DNA from: Candidatus Bipolaricaulota bacterium
GTDB taxonomy: Bacteria > Bipolaricaulota > Bipolaricaulia > RBG-16-55-9 > DRXL01
Direction: 5' to 3'
DNA length: 64,000 nt
Assembly (NCBI GenBank): GCA_025061735.1
Contig: JANXAU010000004.1
Coordinates: 1,643-65,642 of the forward strand
Of the stretch, positions 4,146-43,073 are shown in pieces. How positions within the stretch are numbered: the stretch's first letter is position 1; each line of letters begins with the position of its first letter. The translations under genes were made by a program, and so were the position numbers. The notes under the pieces are model-generated. The model made no database searches, had not been told where the DNA came from, and was given only the letters and a program-made list of their open reading frames with translations.

Positions 4146-4146
4146 C

Positions 4147-4722
4147 TTAGCACTTGCTCAAAGGCTGCGCCTTTCGATGATTCCACAGGCGCTGAAACTC
4201 TCGCAAGAAGGCCTGGGCCAGCTCGACGCTCTCAATGATCAAGAGATTCTCTTCGTTGCGCGTCTGCGCCGCTGTTGTCCAGTTGTACGACCCCGTGAGG
4301 AGCTTCTCCCCGTCTACGACGGCAAATTTGTGGTGCATGATCCCGCTGTCTGCAAATTCCTTGACGGGGATGCCCGCGTCGCGGAGAAGACAGCCCTTGC
4401 TCCCTCGGCTGGGCTCATCGTCTAGGAGAATCTGGATCTCCAGCCCTTTGCGAAAGGCCTCTTGCAGCGCCTGAGCGATCTCCGGGTCGGTTAGTTGGTA
4501 GAGCGCCGCGTGGAGGGATCGCTGAGCGGTGTTGATTGTCTCTATGATGGCTCTCTCGGGTTGAGGGGAGGGAGAAAAATAAGCTCGGATGGGGGCAAGA
4601 GACGTCCCGATCTCCTTAGGAGCAGATATAGACTCCCAGGGCGCGCAGCCGCTGATCGTATACGCCGCCCACCCCAACGCCAGCCCGATCAACACCCCAA
4701 GGCCAAAGAGAAGCGCGCGCAT
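4147..4722 (-). CDS. Phospholipase D-family (HKD motif) nuclease/phospholipase, probable lipoprotein
   Basis: An HKD motif is present (IMHHKFAVVDG...GSYNWT). The N-terminus has a signal peptide with a lipobox-like LALGWAAYTISGC. Its size is Nuc-like (about 190 aa). Confidence 0.7.
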   Translation of the reverse strand: MRALLFGLGVLIGLALGWAAYTISGCAPWESISAPKEIGTSLAPIRAYFSPSPQPERAIIETINTAQRSLHAALYQLTDPEIAQALQEAFRKGLEIQILLDDEPSRGSKGCLLRDAGIPVKEFADSGIMHHKFAVVDGEKLLTGSYNWTTAAQTRNEENLLIIESVELAQAFLREFQRLWNHRKAQPLSKC

Positions 4723-19137: not shown

Positions 19138-19214
19138 CGGGATGTGGCGCAGCCTGGTAGCGCACACGCTTGGGGTGCGTGGGGTCGCGGGTTCAAATCC
19201 CGCCATCCCGACCA
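19138..19214 (+). tRNA. tRNA-Pro (anticodon GGG)
   Basis: It is 77 nt. The acceptor stem is CGGGATG/CATCCCG, the D-arm GCGCAGCCTGGTAGCGC, the anticodon stem CACGC/GCGTG with loop TTGGGGT (anticodon GGG, G37), the T-arm GCGGGTTCAAATCCCGC, and the 3' end ACCA. Confidence 0.9.
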
Positions 19215-28113: not shown

Positions 28114-29856
28114 ATGGTAGATATGACAGATCAAGCCGAACTAGAACGAAGACTAAGAGCGAAGGCGAACTTCGCCGAAGCGCCCACCGAGCCTAGCCCC
28201 CTGCGCCCCCTCGGCGAGGACGAGATCGGACGCCTCTGCATAGCAGAAGAGCTTTCTATCGCCACCGACGACCAGCAGACCCACATCGAAGTCTATCTGC
28301 CCGAAGATAAGCGCAACGAGATCGCGCTGGGGGATTACGTGGTCATCCCGCTGGGCTATAAAGACTACAAGATCTTTGCCAGCGTCGAGAAGCTCTGCTA
28401 TCGCAAGCGCGACGCGCTCGACGACATGAGCGAGGTGCACGTCTTGGTGAGCGCGGAGCGCCTCGGCGAAGACGACTACATCGAGACGGCAGTCCTCACC
28501 CCCATCTCGATGATCGGCCCGGAGCGCCAAGCCCTCGAGGTGCGCTACATCCCTAAGCCCAACACCATCGTGCGCAAGGTGGCCAGCGAAGATGAAGTCA
28601 AGATCGGCCTCGATATCCCCGACCAAGGACTCTTTCTGGGCTTTGTGGCCGTCAACGGCGAGCCGATCCAGACGCGCCAGCGCCAGTACGTCCCGTACTA
28701 TCTCATCAACGACGAGCAGAAGACCGGCGATCCCATGATCTTTACGCACGTGCTCATCGCGGGGATGAGCGGGCGCGGCAAGACCCATGTCGCCAAAAAT
28801 TTCCTAAGGCAGATCATCGGCTCGGTCTACCCCATGGAGCGGCGCGGCGGCGAGCAACGCAAACCGTGCCTCGTGATTATTGACCCGGAGAACGAGTACT
28901 GGAAGATGCGCGAAGACCCCCACATCGCCAAAGAAGATCGCGAGATGCTCTTTGGGCATGGGATCAAGTTCGGCGGCGTGAAAGACCAGCTCACGGTCTA
29001 TGCCGCCGTCGAGGGCGAAGCGCGCTACACCGGCTGCCCCAAATATACGAACTTCACCATTCCCTTCACGCTCGTGCGCGATTTCCCCTATCTCATCGCG
29101 GGCGGCGAGTTGGACGAGAATCAGTATCTCTCGCTGGTGCAGCTCGTGCGCGACTTCTTCGCCCAGCGCGAAGACGGCACCTACGAAGAGTTCCGTCGCT
29201 TTGTGGACGATCCCAAGACATTAGAAAAGTACAAAGAGTCTGGAAAGATCCATCCGGCGACGTTCCAAGCGCTCCAGCGCCGCGTGGATCGCGCCCACTT
29301 CGAGCGAATCTTTGATCAAGGAGCCAACCCCCTCACGCAGCTTTACAACGACATCTTCGCCGAAGACGTCGTCAGCGTCTTCGCGACCAAGCACTTGAGT
29401 CCCGACGCCGAGCGCATCGTCGTCTTGGCGATCCTCTCGATGATCGCCGATGCCAAACTCAAGAGCGCTCCCACCGACTGGGGCCGACGCATCGAGAAGT
29501 TCCCCATCGTCTTGGTTGTAGACGAGGCCCACCGCTACTTCACCAAAGACCAGACCGAGCAAGATCGCATCATCGTTGAAAAGTTCATCAAAGCTGCCAA
29601 ACAGGGGCGCAAGCATCGTCTGGCGCTGGTGCTGATCACCCAGAATCCTCAAGACGTCAACGAAGCGGTCCTCTCGCAGTTGAGCACGCGCGTCCTGCTG
29701 GGGATGGAGCGGGAGATGGCCGAGAAGGCCGGCGCCCCCGCGCGCTACCAGAAAGTGCTGCCGTACTTTGAGCGCGGGCGGATGGTCGTCCATGCCCCGG
29801 ACAACTCCAAGCCCCTCGAGCTGCGTGGACTAGACTTCTGTCTTGTGGGGCACTAG
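28114..29856 (+). CDS. HerA/FtsK-superfamily ATPase (DUF87-like) with an N-terminal HAS-barrel-like domain
   Basis: Walker A is LIAGMSGRGKTHVAKNF and Walker B is IVLVVDEAHRYF. A downstream LVLITQNPQD sensor region is present. The beta-rich N-terminal ~200 aa precede the P-loop as in HerA. A putative promoter TTGACA-17-TCTAAT lies at about 28068-28096. Confidence 0.7.
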   Translation: MVDMTDQAELERRLRAKANFAEAPTEPSPLRPLGEDEIGRLCIAEELSIATDDQQTHIEVYLPEDKRNEIALGDYVVIPLGYKDYKIFASVEKLCYRKRDALDDMSEVHVLVSAERLGEDDYIETAVLTPISMIGPERQALEVRYIPKPNTIVRKVASEDEVKIGLDIPDQGLFLGFVAVNGEPIQTRQRQYVPYYLINDEQKTGDPMIFTHVLIAGMSGRGKTHVAKNFLRQIIGSVYPMERRGGEQRKPCLVIIDPENEYWKMREDPHIAKEDREMLFGHGIKFGGVKDQLTVYAAVEGEARYTGCPKYTNFTIPFTLVRDFPYLIAGGELDENQYLSLVQLVRDFFAQREDGTYEEFRRFVDDPKTLEKYKESGKIHPATFQALQRRVDRAHFERIFDQGANPLTQLYNDIFAEDVVSVFATKHLSPDAERIVVLAILSMIADAKLKSAPTDWGRRIEKFPIVLVVDEAHRYFTKDQTEQDRIIVEKFIKAAKQGRKHRLALVLITQNPQDVNEAVLSQLSTRVLLGMEREMAEKAGAPARYQKVLPYFERGRMVVHAPDNSKPLELRGLDFCLVGH

Positions 29857-31055
29857 GGGTAGACGGCACGCCCCTTGACAAAGGTCATCACCGGCCAGCC
29901 TTGAACCCTCAAGCCCTCATAGGGCGACCAGCCGCACTTGCTCCGTACCGACTCGCGCGTGATCGTCCGCGCGATGTTCATGTCTATAACCGTGATATCG
30001 GCGTCCCGGCCGACGCTCAACTCGCCCGTGGGCAGTCCAAACCGCTTCGCGGGGTTGGCACAGCACACTTCGACCAGGCGCTTCAGAGAGAGCTTCTGAG
30101 CGTTCACAGCGTTGAGCAAGAGCACCAGCATAAATTCCACGCCGGGCACGCCCGCGGGTGCCCTCTCATATCCCACGCTCTTCTCTTCTTGCGTGTGCGG
30201 CGCGTGATCGGTCGCTACTATGTCTATTAAGCCCTCTGCCAAAGCCCACCAGAGAAATTCACGATCTTCTTCGGTCGCCAGCGGCGGGTTCATCTTCAGC
30301 CAGGCGCCCCGCTGCTCTCGATCCCGCTCGGTGAAGAAGAGATACTGAGGGCACGTCTCCAGCGTCACGTCTACTTTCGAGCGCTTGGCTTCTACAATCG
30401 CTTCGACGCCGCGGCGTGTCGTAACGTGCACAAGATGCAGCTTCGTCTCGTGGGCGGCTGCCAGATCGAGCACGTAATGGATATCATCGGCTTCGTGCCG
30501 CGTGACGGTCTTGGGAGGGCCGCCGCGCTGAGCGTGGACCGCTAAGAGCTTTCCCGTCTGCGCGATCCCCTTGAAAATCTCTCGGTGGAGCTTTCTGTCG
30601 GTGATCACAAGATTTCCCGTCGTCTCGCCCAGATAGAGCTTGAAGGCGTCCACGTCGCGCGCCAACTCTTCTAACCGCCCGATATTGTCGCGCGTGATGC
30701 CCCCGTAGATCTTGGCGTTGACGCGGGCGCTGGCGGCCCGCTCCCGATACGCGCGCACGATCTCGGGACGATCCAGGGGCGGATCGGTGTTGGGCATGGC
30801 GCAGACCGTCGTGACGCCACCAGAAACTGCTGCTCTTCCCAGAGAGGCCCAGTCTTCTTTATGAGATTGGTTGAGATCGCGCGCGTGGACGTGAACATCT
30901 ATCCCCCCCGGCAGAATCAATCTCCCCGAACAGTCTATCTGCTCATCGCCCGAGAGATTGCTCCCGATCGCGCGAATCTTCTCGTCAAACGCGATGTCGG
31001 TCTTGCGAAGCTGGCCATCAACGAAGACGGTGGCATTGCGGAGGATGGTCATCAA
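29853..31055 (-). CDS. Cyclic amidohydrolase of the dihydroorotase/allantoinase family (PyrC-like)
   Basis: The metal-binding pattern is DVHVHARD...(K)...HLVHVTT...DHAPH with a terminal Asp, typical of dihydroorotase and related amidohydrolases. Length is 400 aa. Confidence 0.75.
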   Translation of the reverse strand: MMTILRNATVFVDGQLRKTDIAFDEKIRAIGSNLSGDEQIDCSGRLILPGGIDVHVHARDLNQSHKEDWASLGRAAVSGGVTTVCAMPNTDPPLDRPEIVRAYRERAASARVNAKIYGGITRDNIGRLEELARDVDAFKLYLGETTGNLVITDRKLHREIFKGIAQTGKLLAVHAQRGGPPKTVTRHEADDIHYVLDLAAAHETKLHLVHVTTRRGVEAIVEAKRSKVDVTLETCPQYLFFTERDREQRGAWLKMNPPLATEEDREFLWWALAEGLIDIVATDHAPHTQEEKSVGYERAPAGVPGVEFMLVLLLNAVNAQKLSLKRLVEVCCANPAKRFGLPTGELSVGRDADITVIDMNIARTITRESVRSKCGWSPYEGLRVQGWPVMTFVKGRAVYP

Positions 31056-32620
31056 GGGGATTTTTGAGCTAAGGAGAGAAAGTATTGGCGTACGGTCGCG
31101 CGCAGCTCCGTCGGCACGGCAAGCGCGTCCAAGAGCGCTTCGACCTTCTGATAATCTATCTGCGTCGGTCTTTGGCGCGGGAGCACTTGGGAGTGATCGG
31201 GCATCGCGGTCTGGAAGATCTCAAAGAGCACGTGAAGCTGCTCTTCTTGAACCCCTTTTACAGGGATCTGGCGAATCCGTTCTTGTAATTCAGAGAGATC
31301 GGGGAGGTCGCGTTCGGCCTGCGGGTCGAGAGGGGCTGTGCCCTTCGCGCCCGAGGGCTGGGAGTTCCCGTCGGGATGGCGCGGGCCTTCGCCCTCGCCC
31401 GCTATGGGGGCCTTGCCCGAGCTAAGTTCGTTGGCCGATTCGGATTGGCTCTGCCCAGAACGCTCGTCGGCGGGATGGTGGCCGGAGCGCGAGGCCAGCG
31501 CGTCTTGCAGCTCGCGCTGCAAGTCTGACAGCTGCTGCTGAAGCGCTCTCTGCTCTTCTAATTGCTTGATCGCCTCTTCGAGTTGACGGCTGAACTCCTC
31601 TGGGGTCTGCATCGAGTCTGTCAGCCCTTCTATAAGCGAGAACGCTTGTGGGTTTTGCGAGCGTAGGTCTTGGAGCAGTTTGGTCAGCTCTTCGGGAGAG
31701 AGCGCGCGGGCTTGGGCTTGGACGGCTTGCAGGTCGCGTAAGAGCTGATCGAGTTTATCTTCGCCGGAGCCTTGGTGGCGGGAGCCGAGGGGGCCACCGG
31801 GTTCATCGGTGGGTTTCAGATCGGGGGCTTGCTCGCGGCTTCGGAATGACGAATCCGGCGGGGAGTTTGCCGTCGGAGGTGCAGGCACGAGGCGATCTTG
31901 GGCCTCGCTGATCTCGGCTTGCAATTGCTGAAGCGCAGCTTGAGCGCGCGGGTCGTCGGGATTTTGAGTGAGGGCCGCGCGAGCCTCGTTCAACCGTTGG
32001 CGCCATTCCTCCAGCTTGGCGACTAGCACCGCCCCTGACTGGGGCAGCGGAGAGCGAGCCTCAACACCGGGCTTTTGAGGCGCTGGATCGTTGGTCTCAG
32101 CCATCGTCGCAGGGCGAGAGGCCAACAGCCCTTCGTAGTTCGTCAGCGCCAGACAGACCAGACCCAGCGCAAAGACGCCCACCCACCGACCGTATGTTTG
32201 GTGCTCCAGCGCGCGATCAAACGCAGCGGGCTGGCGCTCGATCATGCGCTCCCACTGGGCTTCCAAGAGCGATGCAAACGCCGATTTCTCGGCTTTGAGT
32301 TCATAGAGCGTGATGAGCCTCTCTCCCCATCCGATGCGCCGGTCGGCCCCATAGAGCAAGCGGGCCATATCTAGACGATAGAACCAGCCCAACGAGAACG
32401 CCCCAAGGGCTACCAGCAAATTGGCGCTCAACCAGACCCACCAGGGCAGCAGTCGTCCCGTAAAGATCTCTAGCCCCAGCCCTGCCATCGTTGCGCTCAA
32501 GCTGACCAGAAGCGCAAGACTGCTCGTGCGCGCGGCTCGCGCAAGGCGCGCCCGCCTCTCTAGGCGTCCAATCCAACGCTCAAAGCGATTCATCGAAGGA
32601 GAGTATAACAAAACAGCCAA
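31052..32620 (-). CDS. Hypothetical membrane protein with N-terminal transmembrane helices and a long Gln/Leu-rich coiled-coil
   Basis: Two to three N-terminal transmembrane helices are followed by about 300 aa rich in Q/L/E heptads (LQQLQAEISEAQDRL, LEEQRALQQQLSDLQRELQ). It overlaps the downstream amidohydrolase gene by 4 nt. Confidence 0.5.
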   Translation of the reverse strand: MAVLLYSPSMNRFERWIGRLERRARLARAARTSSLALLVSLSATMAGLGLEIFTGRLLPWWVWLSANLLVALGAFSLGWFYRLDMARLLYGADRRIGWGERLITLYELKAEKSAFASLLEAQWERMIERQPAAFDRALEHQTYGRWVGVFALGLVCLALTNYEGLLASRPATMAETNDPAPQKPGVEARSPLPQSGAVLVAKLEEWRQRLNEARAALTQNPDDPRAQAALQQLQAEISEAQDRLVPAPPTANSPPDSSFRSREQAPDLKPTDEPGGPLGSRHQGSGEDKLDQLLRDLQAVQAQARALSPEELTKLLQDLRSQNPQAFSLIEGLTDSMQTPEEFSRQLEEAIKQLEEQRALQQQLSDLQRELQDALASRSGHHPADERSGQSQSESANELSSGKAPIAGEGEGPRHPDGNSQPSGAKGTAPLDPQAERDLPDLSELQERIRQIPVKGVQEEQLHVLFEIFQTAMPDHSQVLPRQRPTQIDYQKVEALLDALAVPTELRATVRQYFLSLAQKSP

Positions 32621-32642
32621 AAGCCCGTCAAGCCTTCTGATG

Positions 32643-33302
32643 CTATTCAGCGCTGGGCGTGAACCTAGAAGCCCAAAGATGGAGCGCTGCTAAGATGAGC
32701 GCAAGCCCCCCATACCCAAACGCAAGAAAGAAGCCCTGACCGTGCAGAGGGCTTTCGCTGAACCAGAGCGAGAGCATCAGAAACGGATTGAGAGGATGCA
32801 GCACGAAGAACGTCACAAGGAGCACTACAGCTACCAGAGCGTATTTGATATTAAACTGAACGATCTCCGAGGGCCAGCGCCGCGCAATCAACCAGCCCGC
32901 ATAGGCCCAGCACCATCCCTGACCTAACAGATAGATCAAGGCGAAGAGCAGACGCTCCACCGCTAGCGCCGTCAAGCCCTGATAGACCGCCCAGTAGGGC
33001 AGCGAGATCACCCCCAAGAACGTCACCGGCGGTAGCAGCGCTATCGCCGACGAAGAGGCCGATTTTCCATAAGCTACCCCCATGTTCAGCGCGTATAGAA
33101 TAAACAATAAAATAGCGAAGGCGCTGAAGAGGCTGAGAAAATTGATTCTGGGTTCAAGGAGATCGTCAATGCGACTAGGAGCGGGCAAGGCCAGCACCAA
33201 CGGCACGCCCGTCAGCACCAGATACCCCAGCCACCATCCGGGTGTCACAAGCAGAGCGCTCTCGCCCCAAGAGGCTCGAATCTTCTCTCGCCAGGCCCTC
33301 AC
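32643..33302 (-). CDS. Hypothetical polytopic membrane protein
   Basis: Six to seven hydrophobic helices are present. The start was placed at a GTG (VRAWREKI...) overlapping the stop of the upstream gene. The ORF-track version (to 33479) would overlap the upstream gene by 180 nt. Confidence 0.45.
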   Translation of the reverse strand: MRAWREKIRASWGESALLVTPGWWLGYLVLTGVPLVLALPAPSRIDDLLEPRINFLSLFSAFAILLFILYALNMGVAYGKSASSSAIALLPPVTFLGVISLPYWAVYQGLTALAVERLLFALIYLLGQGWCWAYAGWLIARRWPSEIVQFNIKYALVAVVLLVTFFVLHPLNPFLMLSLWFSESPLHGQGFFLAFGYGGLALILAALHLWASRFTPSAE

Positions 33303-35017
33303 GGTTCTCTCTCCCTCCCTGCGAATACCACTAAATTTCGCGCGCGACGCAGCTCGGCATCGCGCTCCCCCCACAGAGACGATCCCCCGCTGCGCCACGC
33401 CACCAGCGCCACCGGAGGAAGCTGCCCCCGCACGTGATACCAGAGCGCTTGTGCCGCTTCGTCCAGATCGCGCGCCCACTCCTCTTCGCTAGAGGCCTCT
33501 ATCAACGCGATCTCGGCGTCGCTTTGAGCCGCAACCTCCCCAAGCCTATAGAACGCCCCACGCCAGCGCACCGCCACGCGCTCCAAGCTCTCCGATGATC
33601 TGTTAGAGACAAAGACCTTGGGAGGAGAGCCGGAAGCGTCCACCAAGAACTCCATCTGTGCAGGGGAGAAGCGCTCGGCCTTGAACGAACGCAAGGAGAG
33701 CGACTCGCCGTAAAAACGCACTGTCTTCTCGGAGATCTGAGAGTCAAGGTTCACGCTCAAAGCGCGCGGCGTCTGGCCAGTGCGCGTTAGGTTCTTCACG
33801 GCGTCACTCCTCACGGTGAGCTGCTGCTCCCCCGCACGCCGCGAGAAGATCGCATACCAGCTTTGCTCTAGACCGAACCGTTCGCCGCTCCACCCCCACA
33901 GCACGCTCAGCTCCAAGCTATAATACTGACGGATGAAATCCGGCTGGCGCAAATACCCCCCCAGCACGAGCGCCAGAGAGAACGCCCAAGCGACCGTCAA
34001 GGGAAGCCCTAGCTGGGGCTTCTGTCGCTGCCATGCGTTCAGAGCCGCAACCCCAAGGACAAAGACAACCAACAGAGAGACGAGCCATAGCCGCGAAGGC
34101 ACAGGAACTATCTCCCGGCCCAACGCTCGCTCCACCAAGAGCGCTTCGTCTACACGACCGCTCTCGCGTTTAGGGAGCCTCTCCCACTGACCGGGAGCTT
34201 CTGTAGCGCTCAGCCACACCCGCCCCAAGCCCAACGGGCGCTCCCACCACAAGGGACGTCCAAGCGAATCCCTCGCGATGACCCGCGCCCCCACTCGCAA
34301 CTCCCCGTCGAGCCGTAGCTCCCCTGCGTCCTCTAAGATCTGCAGACGTCTCAACGGAAGGAGCGCAGCCCACCAGCCCTGGGGCGTCTCAGGCGACACC
34401 GAGAGATCCCCTAATCCCAGATGTTCCAGCGCGTAGCTCCCTCCCAAGATGACCAGCTCGCCCCCGCGCAAGACCCATTGATAGAGCGCCGTGCGCTGCT
34501 CGTCGCTCAGGCGAGCCGGGTCGAGCCGCCCCCAGTAGAGACGCTGCACGCTCTCGTAGCTTGTCCAGCGCTGAGGAAGCTTGTCAAACGGGTAGGGTTC
34601 GGCACCGGGGACGTCGGGTGCTTCCAGAGCCAAGACCAAGGGCTGATCGCTCCAGCGCTCGCGCAGCTCAATCTCGGTGCGGATCAGCTCGTGGCCGTCC
34701 GCGCGCAGCAAGCGCACGTGAACGGGGACGCTGACCCCTCGGACAAGAAAGTCCAGCGCGAGCGTCTTGCGCGTGCGCGGCGGCAGAGCTACCGAGACCA
34801 AAACCCGCTCTACAGCCTCGCCCGCTCGCAGCTCTTGCGTCACCTCTAAAAGCGCGTTGAGCGCCGTGTTTCCGTTGCCGATCGTCACCGATAGCGGCGT
34901 GAGCGTCTCGGGAAGATAGCGACCGTTGAACCCAAATTCGAGCGCCTCCAAACGCAGTTGGGCCGCTACTGGCCAGCCCCATAGACAGATCAACCAGAGC
35001 GCTAGCGATCTACGCAT
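33299..35017 (-). CDS. Hypothetical secreted/membrane-anchored protein (572 aa)
   Basis: It has a signal peptide (MRRSLALWLICLWGWPVAAQ) and an internal transmembrane helix (LWLVSLLVVFVLGVAALNAW). No recognised catalytic motif was found. It overlaps the VKOR gene by 8 nt. Confidence 0.5.
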   Translation of the reverse strand: MRRSLALWLICLWGWPVAAQLRLEALEFGFNGRYLPETLTPLSVTIGNGNTALNALLEVTQELRAGEAVERVLVSVALPPRTRKTLALDFLVRGVSVPVHVRLLRADGHELIRTEIELRERWSDQPLVLALEAPDVPGAEPYPFDKLPQRWTSYESVQRLYWGRLDPARLSDEQRTALYQWVLRGGELVILGGSYALEHLGLGDLSVSPETPQGWWAALLPLRRLQILEDAGELRLDGELRVGARVIARDSLGRPLWWERPLGLGRVWLSATEAPGQWERLPKRESGRVDEALLVERALGREIVPVPSRLWLVSLLVVFVLGVAALNAWQRQKPQLGLPLTVAWAFSLALVLGGYLRQPDFIRQYYSLELSVLWGWSGERFGLEQSWYAIFSRRAGEQQLTVRSDAVKNLTRTGQTPRALSVNLDSQISEKTVRFYGESLSLRSFKAERFSPAQMEFLVDASGSPPKVFVSNRSSESLERVAVRWRGAFYRLGEVAAQSDAEIALIEASSEEEWARDLDEAAQALWYHVRGQLPPVALVAWRSGGSSLWGERDAELRRARNLVVFAGREREP

Positions 35018-35468
35018 CGGAGGCGTCCGGCGCGGAGCAAGACGCCGTGAGCACGCGCAACTCCCACACGCTCAGCACAAAGATTAGCGTGACGATCAGG
35101 GCAGAGACGACGCACCACAAGCAGAACGCGCCGATGACAAACCGTTGCAGATAACTGAGATAGAGCGAATAGAGAAAAGCGCCGAGCGCGAGGCCAAAAT
35201 TCAGCCCCGCCAGCGTCTTACGGCGCTCGCCGGAGGCCTTCAGTTGCAACGCCGTGACGAGCACGAAGAGCAGATAGCCCCCCAACCCCAGCAGAGCCAC
35301 CGGGATCGGGCCGATGTAGGCGTAGATGCTCGTCTGCACTACCTCACAGGGGTTGCCCTCGCCCAAACAGAGAAGCTCTGTGTTGGTGAGCTTGGAGTAC
35401 GTCAAATACCCCGAGACGCCGACCCCGGCCAACGCCAAGCAGAGAATCACCCAGAGACGCCATTTCAT
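35010..35468 (-). CDS. Vitamin K epoxide reductase (VKOR) family membrane protein
   Basis: Hydrophobic helices are present, with the loop cysteines CLGEGNPC and the active-site CLWC (CxxC) in the last helix. The start was placed at MKWRLWVILCL. The ORF-track N-terminal extension is not membrane-like. Confidence 0.75.
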   Translation of the reverse strand: MKWRLWVILCLALAGVGVSGYLTYSKLTNTELLCLGEGNPCEVVQTSIYAYIGPIPVALLGLGGYLLFVLVTALQLKASGERRKTLAGLNFGLALGAFLYSLYLSYLQRFVIGAFCLWCVVSALIVTLIFVLSVWELRVLTASCSAPDASDA

Positions 35469-35473
35469 TTTTT

Positions 35474-36151
35474 TTATCTTCTCGACAGCGGGAGGTTCTG
35501 CTGAATGGCTGCCAGAAGACCTAGATAATCGGCACCGCGCACCAACGTGCCGTGCACGTAAAAGCTTGGCGTAGCGTTGACGCCGCGCTGAATCCCCTCT
35601 TCCATGTCCTCGCGCACCCTCTGAGCATATTTGCGCTCGTCGAGGCATTTTTTGAACTCTTCTTCTTTCAGCCCGAGATTGCGCGCAAACCGCACGAGAT
35701 TGGCCTTGTTAAAATCGACGCCCCGATCGTGCTGCTCAAAGAGCGTATCGTGATAGGCCCAGAAGGCCCCTTGCTCGGCCGCACAATAAGCGGCCTCACC
35801 GGCCAAGTACGACTTCTCCCCCTTGACGATGAAGTTCCGATAGATAAACCGCACGTTGCCCGTCTTGATGTGCTTCTCTTCCAAGACGGGTTTGTGCTCG
35901 CGATTAAAATAGCTGCACGCCGGACACTGAAAGTCTGAGTACTCATAGACGACGACCGGAGCGTTGGGATCGCCCATCTCGGCATTGAAATCTTGGCCGA
36001 TGGCACGCTCTGATCCCTTGGGCTTGGTGAAGAAGAGATTCGCTAGAACAATCAAGATCACAAAGACGGCAGCGATTCCGACGCCCAGCAAGACCGGCGA
36101 CTGCAGATACCAAGGCTTCTGCGCCGTTGGTTTGGCAGCTTTCTTGCTCAC
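35474..36151 (-). CDS. DsbA-family thiol:disulfide oxidoreductase (thioredoxin fold) with an N-terminal membrane anchor
   Basis: The active site is CPACSYF within YEYSDFQCPAC. An N-terminal transmembrane segment and a thioredoxin-like layout are present. It lies immediately upstream of VKOR on the same strand. Confidence 0.8.
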   Translation of the reverse strand: MSKKAAKPTAQKPWYLQSPVLLGVGIAAVFVILIVLANLFFTKPKGSERAIGQDFNAEMGDPNAPVVVYEYSDFQCPACSYFNREHKPVLEEKHIKTGNVRFIYRNFIVKGEKSYLAGEAAYCAAEQGAFWAYHDTLFEQHDRGVDFNKANLVRFARNLGLKEEEFKKCLDERKYAQRVREDMEEGIQRGVNATPSFYVHGTLVRGADYLGLLAAIQQNLPLSRR

Positions 36152-36164
36152 GGAGACAACCTCC

Positions 36165-36992
36165 CTAGTCTTGAGTTCTTCTCATTATAGGGGCAATAAG
36201 CCGCGATTTCCACAGATCAAGAACGCTTTGGCTCTCTTGGGGGAATTCAGCGATCAGCGTTGGGGTTCCAGGGCGCAGCAGGCCGGGGATCCCCTCGGGA
36301 GGATGGTCGTCAAGCCGGGCAAACGCGATCTGGAGCGATTGAATCTCCCGTTGAAGCTCGTGGGCTTCGCGCCCCCAAGCGGCCGTCCGCCAGATCACGC
36401 CGTACTGGTGGGTGGCCCAGCGCCGGCCCAGCTTGGCCAGCCGCTCACGCTCTTGAGGGTCTGTGATCTCGCGGCTGATGCCCACACCCCTCATAGACGA
36501 GAGCACCGCGAAGCGCCCCGCCACGCTGATCTCCAATGTCAAGAGCGCCTCCTCGCCCGCGTCGGTGAGATCGTAGACCTGGACGCGCAAGGCCTCGCCA
36601 GAACGCAATGCTCGCTTGGCCTTGCTCATAGGGAGAAATCCGCTTGCGGCTCCCAAGTCGATCTCGTAACCCGCTGCGCGCCGGCGGCGCACCAGACCCA
36701 GGTAGATCGCATCGAGCCAGACCGGCGGCGTGCAGATCCCAACGCTTGGCAGCGCTTGGCAAATAAGACGGCGAAATTCCGCCAGAGCCGTCTCGTCGCC
36801 GGTGACGATAACCCCTTTGCCATCATCGCGATCGGAGACTTGCAGCTCAAACGGTTCTGGGAGAGAAGCTCCATTCAGATAGGCTCGAAGCTCTTCCGAG
36901 GGCTGCACGATCTGCCAGCCGTGCTCGTGCAGCAACGCGCCAAGAGCCAGACCGTACACGCTGCGCAGTCGAACCTTGAACATAAAGGGCAA
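36165..36992 (-). CDS. Hypothetical protein (275 aa)
   Basis: Coding-like composition and an operon position upstream of dsbA. No domain was recognised. Confidence 0.45.
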   Translation of the reverse strand: MPFMFKVRLRSVYGLALGALLHEHGWQIVQPSEELRAYLNGASLPEPFELQVSDRDDGKGVIVTGDETALAEFRRLICQALPSVGICTPPVWLDAIYLGLVRRRRAAGYEIDLGAASGFLPMSKAKRALRSGEALRVQVYDLTDAGEEALLTLEISVAGRFAVLSSMRGVGISREITDPQERERLAKLGRRWATHQYGVIWRTAAWGREAHELQREIQSLQIAFARLDDHPPEGIPGLLRPGTPTLIAEFPQESQSVLDLWKSRLIAPIMRRTQD

Positions 36993-37059: not shown

Positions 37060-38613
37060 ATGGAGTCTCTTCTTATCGTAGATTTCGGCTCGCAGTATAC
37101 CAAGCTGATTGCTAAGATGGTGCGGGAGTTGGGGGTCTATGCCGAGATTGTCTCTCCCGAGATCAAGGCCGAAGAGATCGAGCGTCGCGCCCCCAAGGGG
37201 CTGATTCTCTCGGGAGGTCCGGCCAGCGTCTATGCCCCCGAGGCCCCTCGCCTCGACCCGGCCATCTACAGATTACAGATCCCGATCTTGGGGATCTGCT
37301 ACGGAATGCAATTGCTGGCTCACGAGTTTGGCGGGAGAGTCCTGCGGGGGGCCAAGCGCGAGTACGGCTCCAGCCTCTTGGAGATCCTCCAAGAGAATAC
37401 GCTGCTGAAAGGGCTGGGCCCCTGCGAAGAAGTCTGGATGAGCCACGGCGACGAGATCCAAGAGCTGCCCAAAGAATTTATCTCGCTGGCCAAGACGGCC
37501 AACGTAGCCCACGCCGCGATGAAGAGCCGCGATGGGCGTCTCTATGGGATCCAGTTTCACCCAGAGGTGGCCCATACCCCCAAGGGCCGAGAGATCTTGA
37601 AGAACTTTCTCTTTGAGATCTGTGGGTTTGAAGGGCAATGGCGTCCCGCCGACCGGGTAGAAGAGATCGTTGCCGAGCTGCGCCAGCAGCTCGCGCACGC
37701 GCGCCACGTGCTCATCGGGGTTTCGGGCGGGGTAGACAGCAGCACCGCCGCGGTTCTGGTGCACCGCGCCATCGGCCCTCGACTGATCTCGCTTTTTGTG
37801 GACACCGGGCTGCTGCGTCTGGGGGAGGTCGAGCGCACGCAGAGGGTCTTCGAGCGCTTGGGAATCGAGCTAAAGATCGTAGACGCCAAAGCGCGCTTCT
37901 TGAGAGCGCTGGCAGGGGTCACCGACCCGGAGGAGAAGCGCAAGCGCATTGGAACCGAGTTTATCAGGGTCTTTGAAGAAGAAGCCCGGCGCTTGGAGCG
38001 CGCCCTAGGCCCCATAGACGTCCTGGTGCAGGGGACGATCTATTCCGACGTGATCGAGAGCGGCGCGCCGAACACAGGGGCACGCCGGGCCGACAGAATC
38101 AAGAGCCATCACAACGTCGGCGGACTCCCAGAGCGATTGAACTTTAAGATCGTCGAACCGTTGAGAAACTTCTTCAAAGACGAGGTGCGTCAGATTGGCT
38201 TAGAGCTGGGGATCCCCCCGGAGATCATCTGGGAGCAGCCTTTTCCGGGGCCGGGGCTGGCCGTGCGCATCGTGGGGGAGGTCACAGCCGAGCGCGTCGC
38301 GCTCTTGCAGAGAGTCGATGCGATTTTGAGGGAAGAGATCGCCCAAGCGGGGCTGTCGCGCGCTATTTGGCAGTATTTTGCGGTCTTGTTGCCCGTGCGA
38401 GCCGTGGCGGTCTTGGGGGATGGTCGGGCCTACGGGCACGTTGTAGCTCTGCGTGCCGTCGAGAGCCGCGACGGCATGACCGCCGACTGGGTTCACTTGT
38501 CTTACGATCTTTTGGAGCGCGTCTCCAGTCGCATCACCAACGAAGTTGAGGGAGTGACGCGGGTGGTCTACGACATCACGTCGAAGCCGCCCGCCACGAT
38601 CGAATGGGAGTAG
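37060..38613 (+). CDS. guaA: GMP synthase (glutamine-hydrolysing)
   Basis: It has an N-terminal GATase domain (ILGICYGMQLL, catalytic Cys), an ATP-PPase P-loop (GVSGGVDSST) and a C-terminal dimerisation domain ending ...PPATIEWE. Length is 517 aa. Confidence 0.93.
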   Translation: MESLLIVDFGSQYTKLIAKMVRELGVYAEIVSPEIKAEEIERRAPKGLILSGGPASVYAPEAPRLDPAIYRLQIPILGICYGMQLLAHEFGGRVLRGAKREYGSSLLEILQENTLLKGLGPCEEVWMSHGDEIQELPKEFISLAKTANVAHAAMKSRDGRLYGIQFHPEVAHTPKGREILKNFLFEICGFEGQWRPADRVEEIVAELRQQLAHARHVLIGVSGGVDSSTAAVLVHRAIGPRLISLFVDTGLLRLGEVERTQRVFERLGIELKIVDAKARFLRALAGVTDPEEKRKRIGTEFIRVFEEEARRLERALGPIDVLVQGTIYSDVIESGAPNTGARRADRIKSHHNVGGLPERLNFKIVEPLRNFFKDEVRQIGLELGIPPEIIWEQPFPGPGLAVRIVGEVTAERVALLQRVDAILREEIAQAGLSRAIWQYFAVLLPVRAVAVLGDGRAYGHVVALRAVESRDGMTADWVHLSYDLLERVSSRITNEVEGVTRVVYDITSKPPATIEWE

Positions 38614-38627
38614 TTACTCCAACCCAA

Positions 38628-39644
38628 ATGAAAATAAAAGTCTGTCTCTACTTGGAGGCCGAGAGCGTCATCGGGCGTTCGGGGTTTCGCACCGCGTTTC
38701 TCCAGCAACTCCGAGCGCTCCAACAGCAAGACTTACAAGTCACGACCGACCCTAACGACGACTATGATATCCTTCACTTACACTGGTTTGGCCCGCTCTC
38801 GTTTTACAATCTCATCAAGGCCAAGCAGCAGGGCAAGAAGGTGATCGCGCACGCGCACAGCGTCGGCGCGTATGACCTCAAAGACAGCTTCACGCTCTCG
38901 AATACTCTTGCTCCGCTCTACGAGCGCTATCTTCAGTATTTTTATGAACAGAGCGACGCGATCTTCACGCCCTCCGAACACGCTCGGAGACTTCTAGAAG
39001 CCCAGGGGATTCGTACTCCCATCTACGTCGTCAGCAACGGCGTGGACTTGGAGCGCTTTCGTTTTGATCCGCGCAAGCGCGCCCAGAGCCGTGCTCAGCT
39101 TGGGCTAAAGCGTTTCACGGTCTTCAGCGCCGGCCATGTGATCCCTCGCAAAGGGATCATTGATTTTATCTCGGTAGCGCGTCGGCTTCCCCAGTTTGAT
39201 TTCGTCTGGTTTGGGCACTTGTGGGGGAAGCTCTTGGCGTACGACAGCGAGATGAATGAAGCGTTAGAATCTCGCCCGAAGAACGTGAAAATGCCGGGGT
39301 TTGTCGAGGACACGCCCGCGGCCTACGCGGCCGGCGATCTCTTGCTCTATCTCTCGTACGGGGAGACGCACGGCCTGGTGCTCCTGGAAGCAGCCGCTCT
39401 AGAGCGCCCCATCGTCCTGCGCGATCTGCCCGAATATCGGTCGCTGGGCTTTGAAGACGGGGTCAACTGCTTAAAGGGCAAGACGGTCGAGGAGTTCTCG
39501 CGCCAAGTAGAACGATTGGCCAACGATCCAGAACTCCAGAGGCGTTTGGGGCAAGCCGCCCGCGCGCTGGCCGAAACGCACGCGCTCGACCGCGTGGGGC
39601 AGCGCCTGTGCGAGCTGTATCAAAAGATCTTAGAAGGGAAATGA
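38628..39644 (+). CDS. Glycosyltransferase family 4 (GT-B, retaining), paralog 1
   Basis: GT4 C-terminal EX7E-like region (LLYLSYGETHGLVLLEAAALERPIV). The N-terminus MKIKVCLYLEA is highly similar to the next gene. The start was placed at the internal ATG. Confidence 0.8.
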   Translation: MKIKVCLYLEAESVIGRSGFRTAFLQQLRALQQQDLQVTTDPNDDYDILHLHWFGPLSFYNLIKAKQQGKKVIAHAHSVGAYDLKDSFTLSNTLAPLYERYLQYFYEQSDAIFTPSEHARRLLEAQGIRTPIYVVSNGVDLERFRFDPRKRAQSRAQLGLKRFTVFSAGHVIPRKGIIDFISVARRLPQFDFVWFGHLWGKLLAYDSEMNEALESRPKNVKMPGFVEDTPAAYAAGDLLLYLSYGETHGLVLLEAAALERPIVLRDLPEYRSLGFEDGVNCLKGKTVEEFSRQVERLANDPELQRRLGQAARALAETHALDRVGQRLCELYQKILEGK

Positions 39645-39655
39645 GGGGAAATAAG

Positions 39656-40690
39656 ATGAGAGTCTGTCTCTATTTAGAAGCCGCGGAGATGGTGGCCAAA
39701 TCCGGCTTTAGAACGGCGTTCGAGCACCAGCGCCGCGCGCTGCAGAGCGCCGGCGTGGAGGTCGTGGACGACCCCGCGCGCGACGATTATGACTTGCTGC
39801 ATCTGCACTTCTTTGGCCCCAAGTCGCTCTTCTATCTCAAGCGCGCCCGGCGTCTGGGCATCAAAGTGATCGCGCACGCGCACAGCATCGGCGCGCACGA
39901 CTTCGAGGACAGCTTTACGCTCTTCAACTCCATCTCCGGGCTGTATGAAAAATATCTCTATTATTTTTACGAATCGAGCGATGCGGTGATAACATGCTCC
40001 CAGTACGCCCGCGAGCAACTCCAAGCCCAAGGGATCTCCAAGCCCATCTTCGTCGTCAGCAACGCCGTAGATCGTCAGAAGTTCAAGTTCGACTTAGAAA
40101 AACGTCGCCACTATCGCGAGCTGTTGCAATTGAAGCGCTTCACGGTCTTCAGCGCGGGCAACGTCATCCCGCGCAAGGGGATCTTAGACTTCTTAGAAGT
40201 CGCACGGCGGCTCCCAGAGCTGGATTTTGTCTGGTTCGGGCACCTGTGGCCCAAGTTTATGACGTTCTATCCCGAGATGCACAAAGCTTTAGAAACTAAG
40301 CCCCCGAATGTGAAGATGCCCGGCTTTGTGGTAGATACGCCCGCGGCGTTTTCGGCCGGCGATCTCTGTTTTCTCCCGTCGTTTCGAGAGAACCAGCCGA
40401 TGGTCTTGCTGGAGGCGCTCTCGCTGGGGCGCCCGCTGGTCGTGCGCGACATCCCGGAGTATCGGGGCTGGCTCAAAGAGGGCGTCAACGCGCGCTTGGG
40501 CAGCTCTGTCGAGGAGTTCGTCGCGCAGATTCGCACACTTGCGCAAGACCCCCGCGAATGGCAGCGGCTCTCGTTGGCCGCCGAAGCGCTGGCCGAGCAG
40601 AGCAGCCTCCCCGTTGTGGGCCGTCGCTTGAAAGAGCTGTACGCGCTTATCCTAGAAGGAGCTGCCGTGTCGGCTTCTTCGTCTCTATGA
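39656..40690 (+). CDS. Glycosyltransferase family 4, paralog 2 (tandem duplicate)
   Basis: MRVCLYLEAAEMVAKSGFRTAF... aligns by eye with paralog 1 along its full length (HLH.FGP, KVIAHAHS.GA.D, VFSAG.VIPRKGI.DF, VWFGHLW). The start was placed at the internal ATG at 39656. Confidence 0.8.
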   Translation: MRVCLYLEAAEMVAKSGFRTAFEHQRRALQSAGVEVVDDPARDDYDLLHLHFFGPKSLFYLKRARRLGIKVIAHAHSIGAHDFEDSFTLFNSISGLYEKYLYYFYESSDAVITCSQYAREQLQAQGISKPIFVVSNAVDRQKFKFDLEKRRHYRELLQLKRFTVFSAGNVIPRKGILDFLEVARRLPELDFVWFGHLWPKFMTFYPEMHKALETKPPNVKMPGFVVDTPAAFSAGDLCFLPSFRENQPMVLLEALSLGRPLVVRDIPEYRGWLKEGVNARLGSSVEEFVAQIRTLAQDPREWQRLSLAAEALAEQSSLPVVGRRLKELYALILEGAAVSASSSL

Positions 40691-41442
40691 AGCTCTCTAT
40701 CGCGATCCCTGCCCACAACGAAGAGGCGTTTATCACAGACGCGCTGCGCTCTCTAGACGCGCAAGAGTTTTCAGGAGAGCTTGAGATCATCGTCTGTCTC
40801 AACGCGTGCACCGACAAGACCGAAGAGATCGTGCGTGCTTGGGCGACGGCATCGCGTTGGCCGATGGTGATCGTGCACGAGCCGCGCAAGGGCGTGAGCT
40901 GGGCGCGCCAGACGGCGTTTATGAGCGCTTGTGGGGAGATCATCGCCAGCGCCGACGCCGACGCTTCTTATCCCCCTCGCTGGGCGGCGCGCATCGCCGA
41001 GGCTTTCGCCCAAGATGCAAATTTAGTGCAAATCTACGGGCCAGTGCGCTTACGCGACTTCACGGGGCCAGGGCGCTGGTTCTGGAAGTACGCCCATCCC
41101 GTCATGAACGATCTGTTTACACTGATGGGGCGTTGGCTGGGCTGGCACAACGTGATTGGCTCTAACTTTGCGGTGCGGCGCAGCGCGTTCTTAGCCGTTG
41201 GGGGCTTTGATACAAAGCTCAAAGCGCTCGAAGACCACGAGATCACGCGGCGCTTGCGCCAGCTCGGTACCGTGCGCTACGACCCCCAATTGGTGGTCTA
41301 TGCCTCCGCGCGCCGCTATAATCGCTTAGGCTTTTGGCGGACTGTCTTGTTTTACACGCGCAACGCGCTCAAGGCGTTTGTGCTCAAGCGCGAGACCGAA
41401 GACTTAGAAAACGTGAGCGAACGCTCGAAGGAGACAACATGA
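40687..41442 (+). CDS. Glycosyltransferase family 2
   Basis: MKLSIAIPAHNEE...LDAQ...DADASYPP gives GT-A DXD-like motifs. The start was placed at the internal ATG at 40687, overlapping the stop of the previous gene. Confidence 0.75.
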   Translation: MKLSIAIPAHNEEAFITDALRSLDAQEFSGELEIIVCLNACTDKTEEIVRAWATASRWPMVIVHEPRKGVSWARQTAFMSACGEIIASADADASYPPRWAARIAEAFAQDANLVQIYGPVRLRDFTGPGRWFWKYAHPVMNDLFTLMGRWLGWHNVIGSNFAVRRSAFLAVGGFDTKLKALEDHEITRRLRQLGTVRYDPQLVVYASARRYNRLGFWRTVLFYTRNALKAFVLKRETEDLENVSERSKETT

Positions 41443-43073
41443 ACCGACGCGTGTTGGTCATCGCCCTCGACGGGGCGACTTTGGATCTCATCGAGCCGTG
41501 GGCCAGAGAGAATCGCCTGCCCCATCTGAAAGCGCTCCTAGACAGGGGCGTATCGGCTCGCCTGGAGAGCACCCTCCCCCCGATTACGGGAGCCGCGTGG
41601 ACGAGCTTTCAAACGGGGGTGCAGCCGGGGCGACACGGGCACTTCGATTGGCTCACGCGCGATGAGCGAAGCTACAAGCTCGTCCCGATCAGCTCGCGCT
41701 CTATCCCCCAAGAGACCTTGTGGGAGTATCTCAGTCGCTACGGCAAGCGCGTCGGCGTGATGGGCGTGCCGGTCAGCTATCCCGCTCGCCCCGTGAACGG
41801 CTTTCTGCTGACAGACTTGCTGACGCCCTCAGACGAAAACTACGCTTCTCCCCCAGAACTCAAAGACGAGATCGAGCGAGCCGTCGGCCCCTACCCCGTC
41901 ATGCCCCAACATTGGAAGGGGCGCTATGCCGCCCGCCAATGGCTGGGCCACCTCAAAGCGAATATTGAGCGCCGCTTACAAATCGCGCGCTATCTGATGC
42001 GCACTCGCCCCTGGGACTTCTTTATGCTGCACATTATGGAGACCGATTCGGTGCAGCATCAGATGTGGCATCTGTTAGATGGCGTGAAGCGTCCGCGCTA
42101 TCACGGCGGGTGGGTCAGGGGCAATCCCATCTTGGAGATCTATCAGCACGCCGACGCTGCGGTTGGAGAACTCCGGCGTGAGCTTTCAGAGCAAGACACG
42201 CTCTTGGTCATCTCCGATCACGGCTTTGGCCCGCTTTATTATAATATCTATCTGAACTGCTGGCTCTACCAAGAGGGCTATTTGAAACTCAAGAGCGATC
42301 TGGCAACGCGCTTGAAATGGCTCTGCTGGAAGAGCGGGCTGACTCCGGCGAACCTCTACGTCTGGCTAGACAGGCTGGGCGTCTTGGGATGGGGGTCGCA
42401 ATTGCGACACGCGGCCATGCACGAACTCTTCGGGCGGTTCTTCTTGTCCATGCAGAATATTGATTGGCCCAAGACTCAAGCATACTCGCACGGCAACGTT
42501 GGACAGATCTATTTGAATCTGCGAGGGCGCGAGCCGCAGGGCTGCGTCGCTCCTGAGAGTGCACACTCTCTGATCGAAGAGATCGCTGCCAAGCTCAAGG
42601 AGCTGCGCAATCCCCTCTCCGGTGAACGGCTCTTTGCCCAGATATATCGCAAAGAAGAAGTCTATCACGGCGAGTCTTTGTCTCGTGCGCCGGAGCTGAT
42701 CCTAGTCCCCCAAGAGGGCGCGATGGCGGTGGGGACTACCGAGTTTATAGATAATAAAATCGTGGGATGGACGTATGCCGGATCGGGGTGGCATCGGATG
42801 GAGGGGGTCTTCATCGCCGCGGGGGAGAACATCTGCAAAGCCCAGGGCTTTGTCTCGAGCTTACAGATCACAGATCTCTTCCCGATCATCGTGACGGCGT
42901 TGGAGTTGCCCGTGCCGGCGGGCTTGGACGGGCGCGTCCCGGCGGGGCTCTTTCGTGAGAAGAGAACGGGCGAGTTGGTCGCTCAGCCCCGTCGCGGTCG
43001 CGATTCCCAAAGACCCGACGCCCAATGGGAAGAGGAGATTCGCCGGCGTTTGAGAAACTTGGGATACGTTTAG
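41439..43073 (+). CDS. Alkaline-phosphatase-superfamily type I phosphodiesterase / nucleotide pyrophosphatase-like protein
   Basis: RVLVIALDGATLDLI...LPPITGAAWTSFQTG matches the PF01663-like metal-binding N-terminus (DG, T nucleophile). Downstream DHGFG is present. The start at 41439 overlaps the GT2 stop (ATGA). Confidence 0.7.
   Translation: MNRRVLVIALDGATLDLIEPWARENRLPHLKALLDRGVSARLESTLPPITGAAWTSFQTGVQPGRHGHFDWLTRDERSYKLVPISSRSIPQETLWEYLSRYGKRVGVMGVPVSYPARPVNGFLLTDLLTPSDENYASPPELKDEIERAVGPYPVMPQHWKGRYAARQWLGHLKANIERRLQIARYLMRTRPWDFFMLHIMETDSVQHQMWHLLDGVKRPRYHGGWVRGNPILEIYQHADAAVGELRRELSEQDTLLVISDHGFGPLYYNIYLNCWLYQEGYLKLKSDLATRLKWLCWKSGLTPANLYVWLDRLGVLGWGSQLRHAAMHELFGRFFLSMQNIDWPKTQAYSHGNVGQIYLNLRGREPQGCVAPESAHSLIEEIAAKLKELRNPLSGERLFAQIYRKEEVYHGESLSRAPELILVPQEGAMAVGTTEFIDNKIVGWTYAGSGWHRMEGVFIAAGENICKAQGFVSSLQITDLFPIIVTALELPVPAGLDGRVPAGLFREKRTGELVAQPRRGRDSQRPDAQWEEEIRRRLRNLGYV

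Follow-up and report, generated by a model that had tools for sequence, protein, structure and literature searches.

Three envelope genes of a “Candidatus Bipolaricaulota” genome are probably the 5′ half of a Bat-like operon whose MoxR half is gone from the locus

We analyzed a stretch of 64,000 nucleotides from a “Candidatus Bipolaricaulota” bacterium (contig JANXAU010000004.1, positions 1,643 to 65,642), hereafter the window, which carries on its minus strand seven packed genes (g1 to g7). They code for an FAU-1/RNase E/G-like protein, DsbA, VKOR, three envelope proteins here named X572, X220, and X520 (the trio), and the dihydroorotase PyrC. All seven genes listed for this array by the initial annotation are present, both in the list of open reading frames (ORFs) and in the sequence. 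Proteins identical to those of the window are on record for a “Candidatus Bipolaricaulota” metagenome-assembled genome (GCA_025057475.1, contig JANWXH010000003.1, to which the window corresponds from ca. nt 2082). The most probable reading is that of a composite of four units, in which the trio is the 5′ half of a Bat-like operon with the order X572-X220-X520-MoxR (AAA_3)-DUF58-BatA-BatB and the MoxR half is no longer present at the locus of the window. The results that bear on this reading are gene identities, the folds of predicted models, synteny, the absence of cysteines, and selection.

The gene order, whose conservation in relatives the initial annotation had proposed to check, recurs in at least 8 distinct lineages, with protein identities of 39 to 86% and dS (synonymous divergence) of at least 0.9. 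The order FAU1-DsbA-VKOR-X572-X220-X520-pyrC is found in the window, in loci L005, L006, and L009 (X572 66% identical), and in L007 and L008 (59%), and only in these does pyrC directly follow X520. In L001 to L003, L010 to L012 (ca. 39%), L017, and L018, the first six of these genes lead into MoxR (AAA_3), DUF58, and BatA, which joins a BatA N-terminal domain to VWA_2. On contigs that extend far enough, BatA is followed by a second, larger, membrane-anchored protein of 840 to 860 aa, vWA/GATase1-like (BatB); the contig of L004 breaks off where MoxR begins, and that of L013 inside X572. Two high-GC metagenome contigs, L014 and L015, with ca. 20% identity to X520 of the window, were added by a search with the X520 subgroup that diverges most. 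The order in L014 is X725-X245-X639-MoxR-DUF58, while L015, which starts at the X245 homologue, runs through MoxR-DUF58-BatA-vWA. Profile comparison by hhalign connected X725 with the X572 family (probability 99.6%, E 8e-25) and X245 with the X220 family (96.5%, E 7e-10). Outside the clade of the window, every contig that reaches past X520 continues into MoxR-DUF58-BatA-BatB as far as it extends. The DUF4350-type neighborhood (MoxR ATPase plus DUF58/vWA), which had been suggested as a test for the three proteins without assignment, is found in the relatives (L001 to L003, L010 to L012, L014, L017, and L018) and not in the window, L005, L006, L009, L007, or L008. A tblastn search with the MoxR, DUF58, and BatA proteins of L002 gave nothing in the 64-kb window. 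The closest outgroup of the clade of the window, L017 (X520 49% and X220 57% identical), retains the MoxR half, and therefore its absence from this clade is derived. From the compared gene orders, the trio thus belongs to a MoxR/vWA operon of seven genes as an integral component, and FAU-1 and DsbA-VKOR are inherited synteny in part of the phylum. In all searches, the trio occurred only in Bipolaricaulota-type metagenome-assembled genomes (MAGs), some of them labeled Acetothermia or Fraserbacteria, and in metagenome contigs; the one distant X520 relative to which cluster records give a name is likewise from Bipolaricaulota. In three clade-B-type loci (L010 20230-21337, L012 14614-15168, and L018 18259-19367) the large vWA protein is followed by a DoxX membrane protein, a possible eighth conserved component of this operon; a DinB_2 protein comes after DoxX in L010 and L018.

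X572 starts with a signal peptide, whose predicted cleavage site is invariably A-Q. An Ig-like beta-sandwich (ca. residues 22 to 116) and a noncatalytic GATase1-like domain (ca. 127 to 270) come next, followed by a hairpin of two transmembrane (TM) helices (ca. 309 to 356), which had been taken for a single internal helix, and by a C-terminal beta-rich domain. The prediction places both large domains outside the cytoplasm. The AlphaFold2 (AF2) model has a predicted local distance difference test (pLDDT) score of 61, with values of 70 to 85 in the N-terminal domains and a low-confidence stretch between the TM hairpin and the C-terminal domain. Its domain folds are GATase1-like/GIFT plus Ig-like, i.e., an extracellular flavodoxin/GATase1-like fold without the catalytic Cys. 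The domain has no cysteine, and therefore X572 cannot be a class I amidotransferase; on the model, it is probably a scaffold of the GldG/DUF4350 type. Seven of the eight X572 members gave a Pfam match to DUF4350, weak and always at the segment “LDPARLSxEQRxALxxWVxRGGELVILGG,” and the best score (18.1 bits) is under the gathering score of 30.4. Other than this match, Pfam and NCBIfam scans of X572, X220, and X520 of the window produced only noise, as did the X572 profile against PDB sequences. The idea of a BatD-like protein among the three found no backing either, as neither X572, X220, and X520 nor their homologues have a BatD (PF13584) or BatC-type Pfam match. A scan of GTDB genomes with the X572 profile recovered 5 loci, all of them in Bipolaricaulota-type MAGs.

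The AF2 model of X220, derived from 17 homologues (pLDDT 76; predicted TM-score [pTM], 0.71), shows the features of an ABC-2 permease, namely, six TM helices with an elbow helix at the N-terminus and, between TM5 and TM6, a re-entrant stretch. Foldseek matches of this model reached a probability of 0.99 and a TM-score of ca. 0.57 with nonsignificant E-values (at least 0.29); the fold searches for X220 and X572 were made against PDB-based libraries. None of the 17 members matched the ABC2_membrane Pfam families at an E-value of up to 10, and the X220 profile had no match among PDB sequences. ABC-2 permeases normally dock their ATPase at the N-terminal helix and the TM2-TM3 loop. These are the least conserved parts of X220, in which the loop has only ca. 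6 residues and no helix. Conservation within the family is nearly complete in the first extracytoplasmic loop, in the loop between TM4 and TM5, and in the re-entrant stretch “LNPFLMLSLWF.” No protein with Walker A plus SGGQ, as expected of an ABC ATPase, was found in the 64-kb window or in the 8 loci checked, and no ABC_tran gene lies inside any cluster. L007 codes for a 225-aa PF00005 (ABC_tran) protein (3779-4456, minus strand) with a degenerate Walker A (GPPASGKS) and no SGGQ, ca. 3 kb upstream of the cluster and on the opposite strand, a position that is not conserved elsewhere.

X520 has a basic N-terminus, a TM hairpin, a conserved cytoplasmic “DRxxGxGExLxTLYEL” segment, and a third TM helix with an invariant Cys. 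The ectodomain contains two helical stretches rich in Q, L, E, A, and R (ca. residues 191 to 236 and 279 to 372) between Pro/Gly/Ser linkers, and the alignments show a conserved C-terminus of 85 aa ending in “...DYxxVExLLxAxxxPxELRxxVRxYF.” The N-terminal TM helices and the helical Q/L-rich ectodomain of the initial annotation are therefore retained, with three TM helices and a length of 513 aa, while its single coiled coil of ca. 300 aa gives way to the two shorter stretches. The family is very rare, with only 57 representatives among 1.84 billion at an E-value of up to 1e-3 in an exhaustive profile search. Lengths range from 100 to 648 aa (all but four have at least 410 aa); most of the 57 match the N-terminal region, and the C-terminal motif is common to the 49 aligned members. 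Among these 49 diverse members there was no Pfam or NCBIfam family, including those of the DUF4175, DUF4129, and TIGR02302 types (Pfam E up to 1, NCBIfam E up to 0.1), which gives no support to the DUF4129/DUF4175 families proposed earlier for testing. PADLOC reported an LmuB match (E 4.5e-4) in the helical region of X520, which we dismissed as coiled-coil noise; it gave no defense-system match for the trio or for MoxR, DUF58, BatA, or BatB.

From these components we infer a complex, its topology, a role for MoxR, and a substrate that is transported or remodeled, with GldF/GldG and further type V ABC systems as the template for the trio. The membrane core, with a type V ABC fold, would be X220, probably as a dimer. 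X572 would sit on its outer face as a GldG-like, noncatalytic GATase1/Ig-domain cap anchored by the TM hairpin, and X520 would provide a conserved cytoplasmic segment and an extended helical/Pro-rich stalk whose conserved tip reaches into the envelope. Where present, the putatively cytoplasmic MoxR and DUF58 (neither has a signal peptide or TM segment predicted at the N-terminus) and the membrane-anchored vWA proteins BatA and BatB would put this complex together or remodel it, a role that has been proposed for MoxR-vWA pairs generally and for the DUF4350-MoxR-vWA neighborhood (PMC5898192). In the clade of the window, the four MoxR-side genes are missing from the locus, with pyrC as the gene now translationally coupled downstream. 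A stronger claim can be formulated, namely, that the trio is an undescribed envelope machine built on an ABC-permease fold without ABC ATPases, coupled to the MoxR/DUF58/vWA (Bat) module in most Bipolaricaulota and running without it in the lineage of the window; we put it forward only tentatively and consider it rather unlikely.

Several points weigh against the reading of the trio as half of a Bat-like operon. The absence of MoxR-DUF58-BatA-BatB covers the locus and the 64-kb window, and loss and relocation are equally compatible with it. The X572 model is mediocre and its DUF4350 matches stay below the Pfam threshold, while the ABC-2 call for X220 comes from one AF2 model of 17 sequences with nonsignificant Foldseek E-values and no ABC2_membrane match; both fold assignments derive from shallow alignments. 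The absence of an ABC ATPase holds for the window and the 8 loci, and an unlinked one could exist. All three families are known from sequence and models alone. Finally, FAU-1 and DsbA-VKOR adjoin the trio in every lineage with an upstream contig except L014, and a tie other than disulfide formation is conceivable.

The fold of X220 could also be taken at face value. X572 and X220, with X520 as an adaptor, would then be an ordinary GldG/GldF-type ABC-2 exporter with the ATPase encoded elsewhere and MoxR/vWA as unrelated neighbors. The pairing of an ABC-2 permease with a GldG/GIFT/DUF4350-like protein is as in GldAFG according to Makarova, Galperin, and Koonin (PMC5898192), and the trio persists without an adjacent MoxR in the clade of the window. 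However, there is no ABC ATPase gene in or next to the cluster in the 8 loci or in the window, the ATPase-docking parts are precisely the least conserved ones of X220, and MoxR-DUF58-BatA-BatB comes after the trio in clade B, L017/L018, and L014/L015 wherever the contig is long enough. An exporter of this kind therefore seems unlikely to us.

The array itself (Table 1) is made up of four unrelated functional units, FAU-1-like, DsbA-VKOR, X572-X220-X520, and pyrC, packed in a streamlined Bipolaricaulota genome, and only the X572-X220-X520 module is unusual; DsbA-VKOR, pyrC, and FAU-1 are ordinary.

Table 1. Features of the seven-gene array (positions of the window)
Feature	Coordinates	Strand	Description
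Seven-gene array	29853-36992	minus	seven ORFs, read from ORF list and sequence
g1, truncated FAU-1/RNase E/G-like	36165-36983	minus	272 aa (start ATG 36983) or 275 aa (start TTG 36992)
g2, DsbA	35474-36151	minus	225 aa, membrane-anchored DsbA-like thiol:disulfide oxidoreductase
g3, VKOR	35010-35468	minus	152 aa from ATG 35468, stand-alone
g4, X572	33299-35017	minus	predicted signal peptide, Ig-like, GATase1-like/DUF4350/GldG-like, TM hairpin, C-terminal beta-rich domain
g5, X220	32643-33302	minus	six TM, 219 aa from GTG 33302; model with ABC-2 (type V) ABC-transporter permease fold
g6, X520	31052-32593	minus	513 aa from ATG 32593, matching NCBI call P0009 (identical protein)
g7, pyrC	29853-31052	minus	399 aa, class I dihydroorotase
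Sigma-70-like site TGGAAA-17-TATAAT	36184-36212	minus	inside g1 3′ end, upstream of DsbA; consensus scan, 10/12 positions
Sigma-70-like site TTGACG-18-TATACT	32602-32631	minus	TG-extended -10; g5/g6 gap (32594-32642); consensus scan, 10/12 positions
Junction g1/g2 (DsbA)			13-nt gap
Junction g2/g3 (VKOR)			5-nt gap; VKOR start ATG 35468
Junction g3/g4 (X572)			8-nt overlap
Junction g4/g5 (X220)			4-nt GTGA overlap; X220 start GTG 33302
Junction g5/g6 (X520)			49-nt gap to ATG 32593; 22 nt with TTG 32620
Junction g6/g7 (pyrC)			1-nt TGATG overlap; 4 nt with TTG start

The tight spacing had been described as overlaps of 4 to 8 nt or short gaps and taken to imply cotranscription. The spacing is indeed tight, but the overlaps across the array, as read from the sequence, are of 1 to 8 nt and the gaps of 5 to 49 nt. 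About half of the same-strand neighbors across the whole window lie at most 25 nt apart, and by a crude greedy ORF call the plus-strand genes at 37060-57110 are near-continuous, in runs of 11 and 7 with one short minus-strand ORF between them. Tight packing is the genome-wide norm, therefore not specific evidence of an operon, and it proves little alone. Sigma-70-like sites just before g2 and g6 weaken the case for cotranscription further; three such sites were found versus 1.5 ± 1.3 expected, which is not significant, and they are consensus matches only. A Shine-Dalgarno sequence (GGGAGG) precedes the DsbA start, GTG 36151. The second site in Table 1, with a -10 that ends 8 nt before the ATG of X520, might act as a promoter within the array, for an X520-pyrC mRNA almost without a leader. 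It falls in the 49-nt gap, the only one of any size in the array, which is absent in relatives whose X220 and X520 genes overlap. An Rfam scan of the 64-kb window found no regulatory RNA within the array; its sole match in the window was one tRNA gene (19138-19211, plus strand, 64.9 bits).

That all seven genes form one functional operon with shared regulation and a shared physiological role appears improbable. They are codirectional, with overlaps or short gaps, and terminator-like sites are no more frequent than expected from shuffling (8 versus 7.1 ± 2.6, i.e., background); the first six genes also keep the same order across two clades. On the other hand, they serve unrelated ends (processing of RNA, formation of disulfides, an envelope complex, and synthesis of pyrimidines), MoxR and its partners replace pyrC in other clades, L014 has a peptidase upstream in place of VKOR/DsbA, and the packing and the promoter-like sites before g2 and g6 have already been mentioned.

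The identification of the DsbA and VKOR genes in the initial annotation was correct. DsbA matches Thioredoxin_4 (E 1.5e-35) and DSBA (E 8e-16) in Pfam and, with 142.5 bits, stays under the cutoff of the NCBIfam Rcas_1661 family; it has one N-terminal TM helix (residues 14 to 46), CPAC at 76 to 79, and a second Cys pair (123/169). VKOR scores 87.5 bits (cutoff, 27.5) and has loop cysteines C34/C41 plus C116xxC119 in the last TM region. Its start (ATG 35468) was chosen from the sequence and the length of the homologues (148 to 154 aa), the longest ORF having 212 aa. DsbA-VKOR pairs are of the DsbB-independent disulfide-forming type known from actinobacteria and cyanobacteria. In the window, likewise, a membrane-anchored CPAC DsbA adjoins a VKOR that stands alone and has CxxC and a pair of loop cysteines, and nothing notable sets this pair apart; the neighboring proteins are not substrates. 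The best explanation is that both genes code for what would be, by sequence, the general quinone-linked disulfide-forming system of the cell.

The initial annotation had gone further and placed this machinery in the service of an extracytoplasmic complex whose assembly needs disulfide bonds. DsbA-VKOR is directly upstream of the trio in the clade of the window, clade B, and L017/L018, and the VKOR and X572 genes overlap by 8 nt. Nevertheless, the idea fails because the mature ectodomains hold no cysteine. The only Cys of X572 is in the signal peptide, and the mature protein has none in the 8 homologues save at one variable position; X220 and X520 have a single conserved Cys each, inside a TM helix (X220-C131 and X520-C147), the BatA homologue has 0, and the BatB homologue has 2, both in the N-terminal TM region. 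Intramolecular disulfides in the trio are thus already refuted by the cysteine counts of the predicted proteins. Besides, the upstream neighbor differs in L014, where a prolyl oligopeptidase directly precedes the trio in place of DsbA/VKOR. Disulfide-dependent assembly as the reason for this gene order is accordingly very improbable. It is just as hard to believe that the trio in the lineage of the window is a functionless, decaying remnant left by the loss of MoxR-DUF58-BatA-BatB, since, in spite of the absence of these four genes from the locus and the 64-kb window, the ORFs are intact in three diverged lineages (window, L005, and L007), the family-wide conserved motifs are kept, and the dN/dS ratio (nonsynonymous to synonymous divergence) of the trio is 0.15 to 0.22 within the MoxR-less clade at near-saturated dS (at least 1.3), like that of pyrC (0.15), with VKOR at 0.16. 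By these usual criteria, the trio is still under purifying selection and functional. As part of a Bat-like operon that is maintained without the MoxR half, it would therefore work alone or with partners encoded elsewhere.

The last gene of the array is, as first annotated, of the dihydroorotase family (329.6 bits against the 279.05 cutoff of NCBIfam TIGR00857; Pfam Amidohydro_1 E 5e-27). The translation reads HxH at residues 54 to 56 (DVHVHARD) and, farther on, AVHAQ, LVHVT, and ATDHAPH, motifs that would contain the amidohydrolase metal ligands, with a putative assignment of the individual ligands. It is single copy within the 64-kb window. Its presence had been considered odd for an envelope operon, but it is a bona fide pyrC, a housekeeping gene that is the lineage-specific neighbor of X520 and adjoins it only in the clade of the window, where MoxR-DUF58-BatA-BatB is missing. 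Converging on it, with a 4-nt overlap of the stop codons, is a gene for a HerA/DUF87-type ATPase of 580 aa (28114-29856, plus strand). This protein matches PADLOC HerA defense models (best E 5.9e-22) and, weakly, NCBIfam anti-phage HerA models, with no obvious partner gene (NurA, SIR2, or DUF4297) adjoining.

The first gene, initially left as unknown, codes for a truncated FAU-1-type, RNase E/G-like RNA-binding protein. It matches Pfam RNase_E_G (PF10150) with 47.3 bits (cutoff, 25.5) at residues 156 to 229, which correspond to profile positions 1 to 75 of 270 only, and has the N-terminal S1 and RNase E/G-like region of the FAU-1 family. The full-length homologue in L010 matches the PDB entry 8wo8, the archaeal “probable ribonuclease FAU-1” (E 1.6e-64). 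A complete RNase E/G catalytic domain is absent from g1, as indicated by the partial PF10150 coverage and a TIGR00757 score of 51 bits versus a cutoff of 326. Full-length homologues have 430 to 445 aa and carry a C-terminal DUF402, which is present in L007, L010, and L002 and absent from the 272-aa protein of the window; in the alignment, ca. 165 C-terminal residues are missing from the window, L005 (7979-8797), and L017 (5341-6156), while L007 (7255-8592) has the full length of 445 aa. This pattern cuts across the pyrC-versus-MoxR split, and so the gene was truncated twice or the tree is more complex.

On the other side of the array, its divergent neighbor (region 37060-43073, plus strand) matches the GMP synthase of L005 with 88% protein identity. 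In L005 (1-7877), the genes after it code for three glycosyltransferases (two GT4 and one GT2), a member of the phosphodiesterase family, and LPG_synthase_TM; the ORFs in the region of the window, compared by size and order alone, resemble these in length and are arranged alike. Farther away, a Cu/Zn superoxide dismutase gene (Pfam Sod_Cu; 3534-4145, plus strand, equivalent to L016 5615-6226) lies beside a 2Fe-2S ferredoxin gene, according to Pfam calls on the identical NCBI contig.

Among known systems, the Bat (Bacteroides aerotolerance) operon, also found in spirochaetes, has the order MoxR-DUF58-BatA-BatB-BatC-BatD-BatE. The relatives of the window keep the order MoxR (AAA_3), DUF58, BatA, and a second, larger, membrane-anchored vWA protein, but show no BatC (TPR), BatD (PF13584), or BatE and have instead three other envelope genes upstream of MoxR; the window has no Bat gene at all. 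According to PMC3557215, a specific function of the Bat proteins had not been experimentally demonstrated. The neighborhood of DUF4350/GldG-like proteins (arCOG01314) with MoxR AAA+ and vWA/DUF58 proteins was predicted to be a secretion or membrane-remodeling complex (Makarova, Galperin, and Koonin 2015, PMC5898192). As there, the relatives of the window pair a signal-peptide GATase1-like (DUF4350/GldG-like) membrane protein with MoxR, DUF58/vWA, and Ig-domain membrane proteins. In contrast, the Bipolaricaulota X572 is below the DUF4350 threshold and has a TM hairpin plus an extra C-terminal ectodomain versus a single C-terminal TM helix, and its partners include an ABC-2-fold permease and a novel stalk protein, which are not described for the archaeal system in the passages considered; the locus of the window itself is without MoxR and DUF58. 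Compared with the ABC-2 transporters of the GldA-GldF-GldG type and other type V exporters (NosDFY, KpsMT-KpsE, and Wzm-Wzt), the trio cluster lacks an ATPase gene, and X220 has neither a sequence match to the ABC2_membrane families nor conserved ATPase-docking regions. The module is thus different from the DUF4350-MoxR-vWA complex, the Bat operon, and GldAFG, with no ATPase subunit, no BatC, BatD, or BatE, the hairpin and second ectodomain of X572, and the novel X520 family.

As a lesson for annotation, tight gene packing in streamlined genomes is not to be read as evidence of an operon, and adjacency to DsbA-VKOR and to pyrC has no functional meaning here. The trio combines a predicted ABC-permease fold without an ATPase, a GldG-like ectodomain, and a very rare family without a database model. 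Many bacteria and archaea have MoxR-DUF58-vWA (“Bat”) operons, for which no function or client is established. Three extra envelope genes fixed before such an operon across a candidate phylum are a defined candidate for its membrane partner, which makes the question of the Bat/MoxR-vWA target more testable, and the lineage of the window is a natural deletion experiment, with the trio retained at a locus that no longer has the MoxR half. If true, an ABC-ATPase-free envelope machine would give the Bat/MoxR-vWA systems a concrete membrane client.

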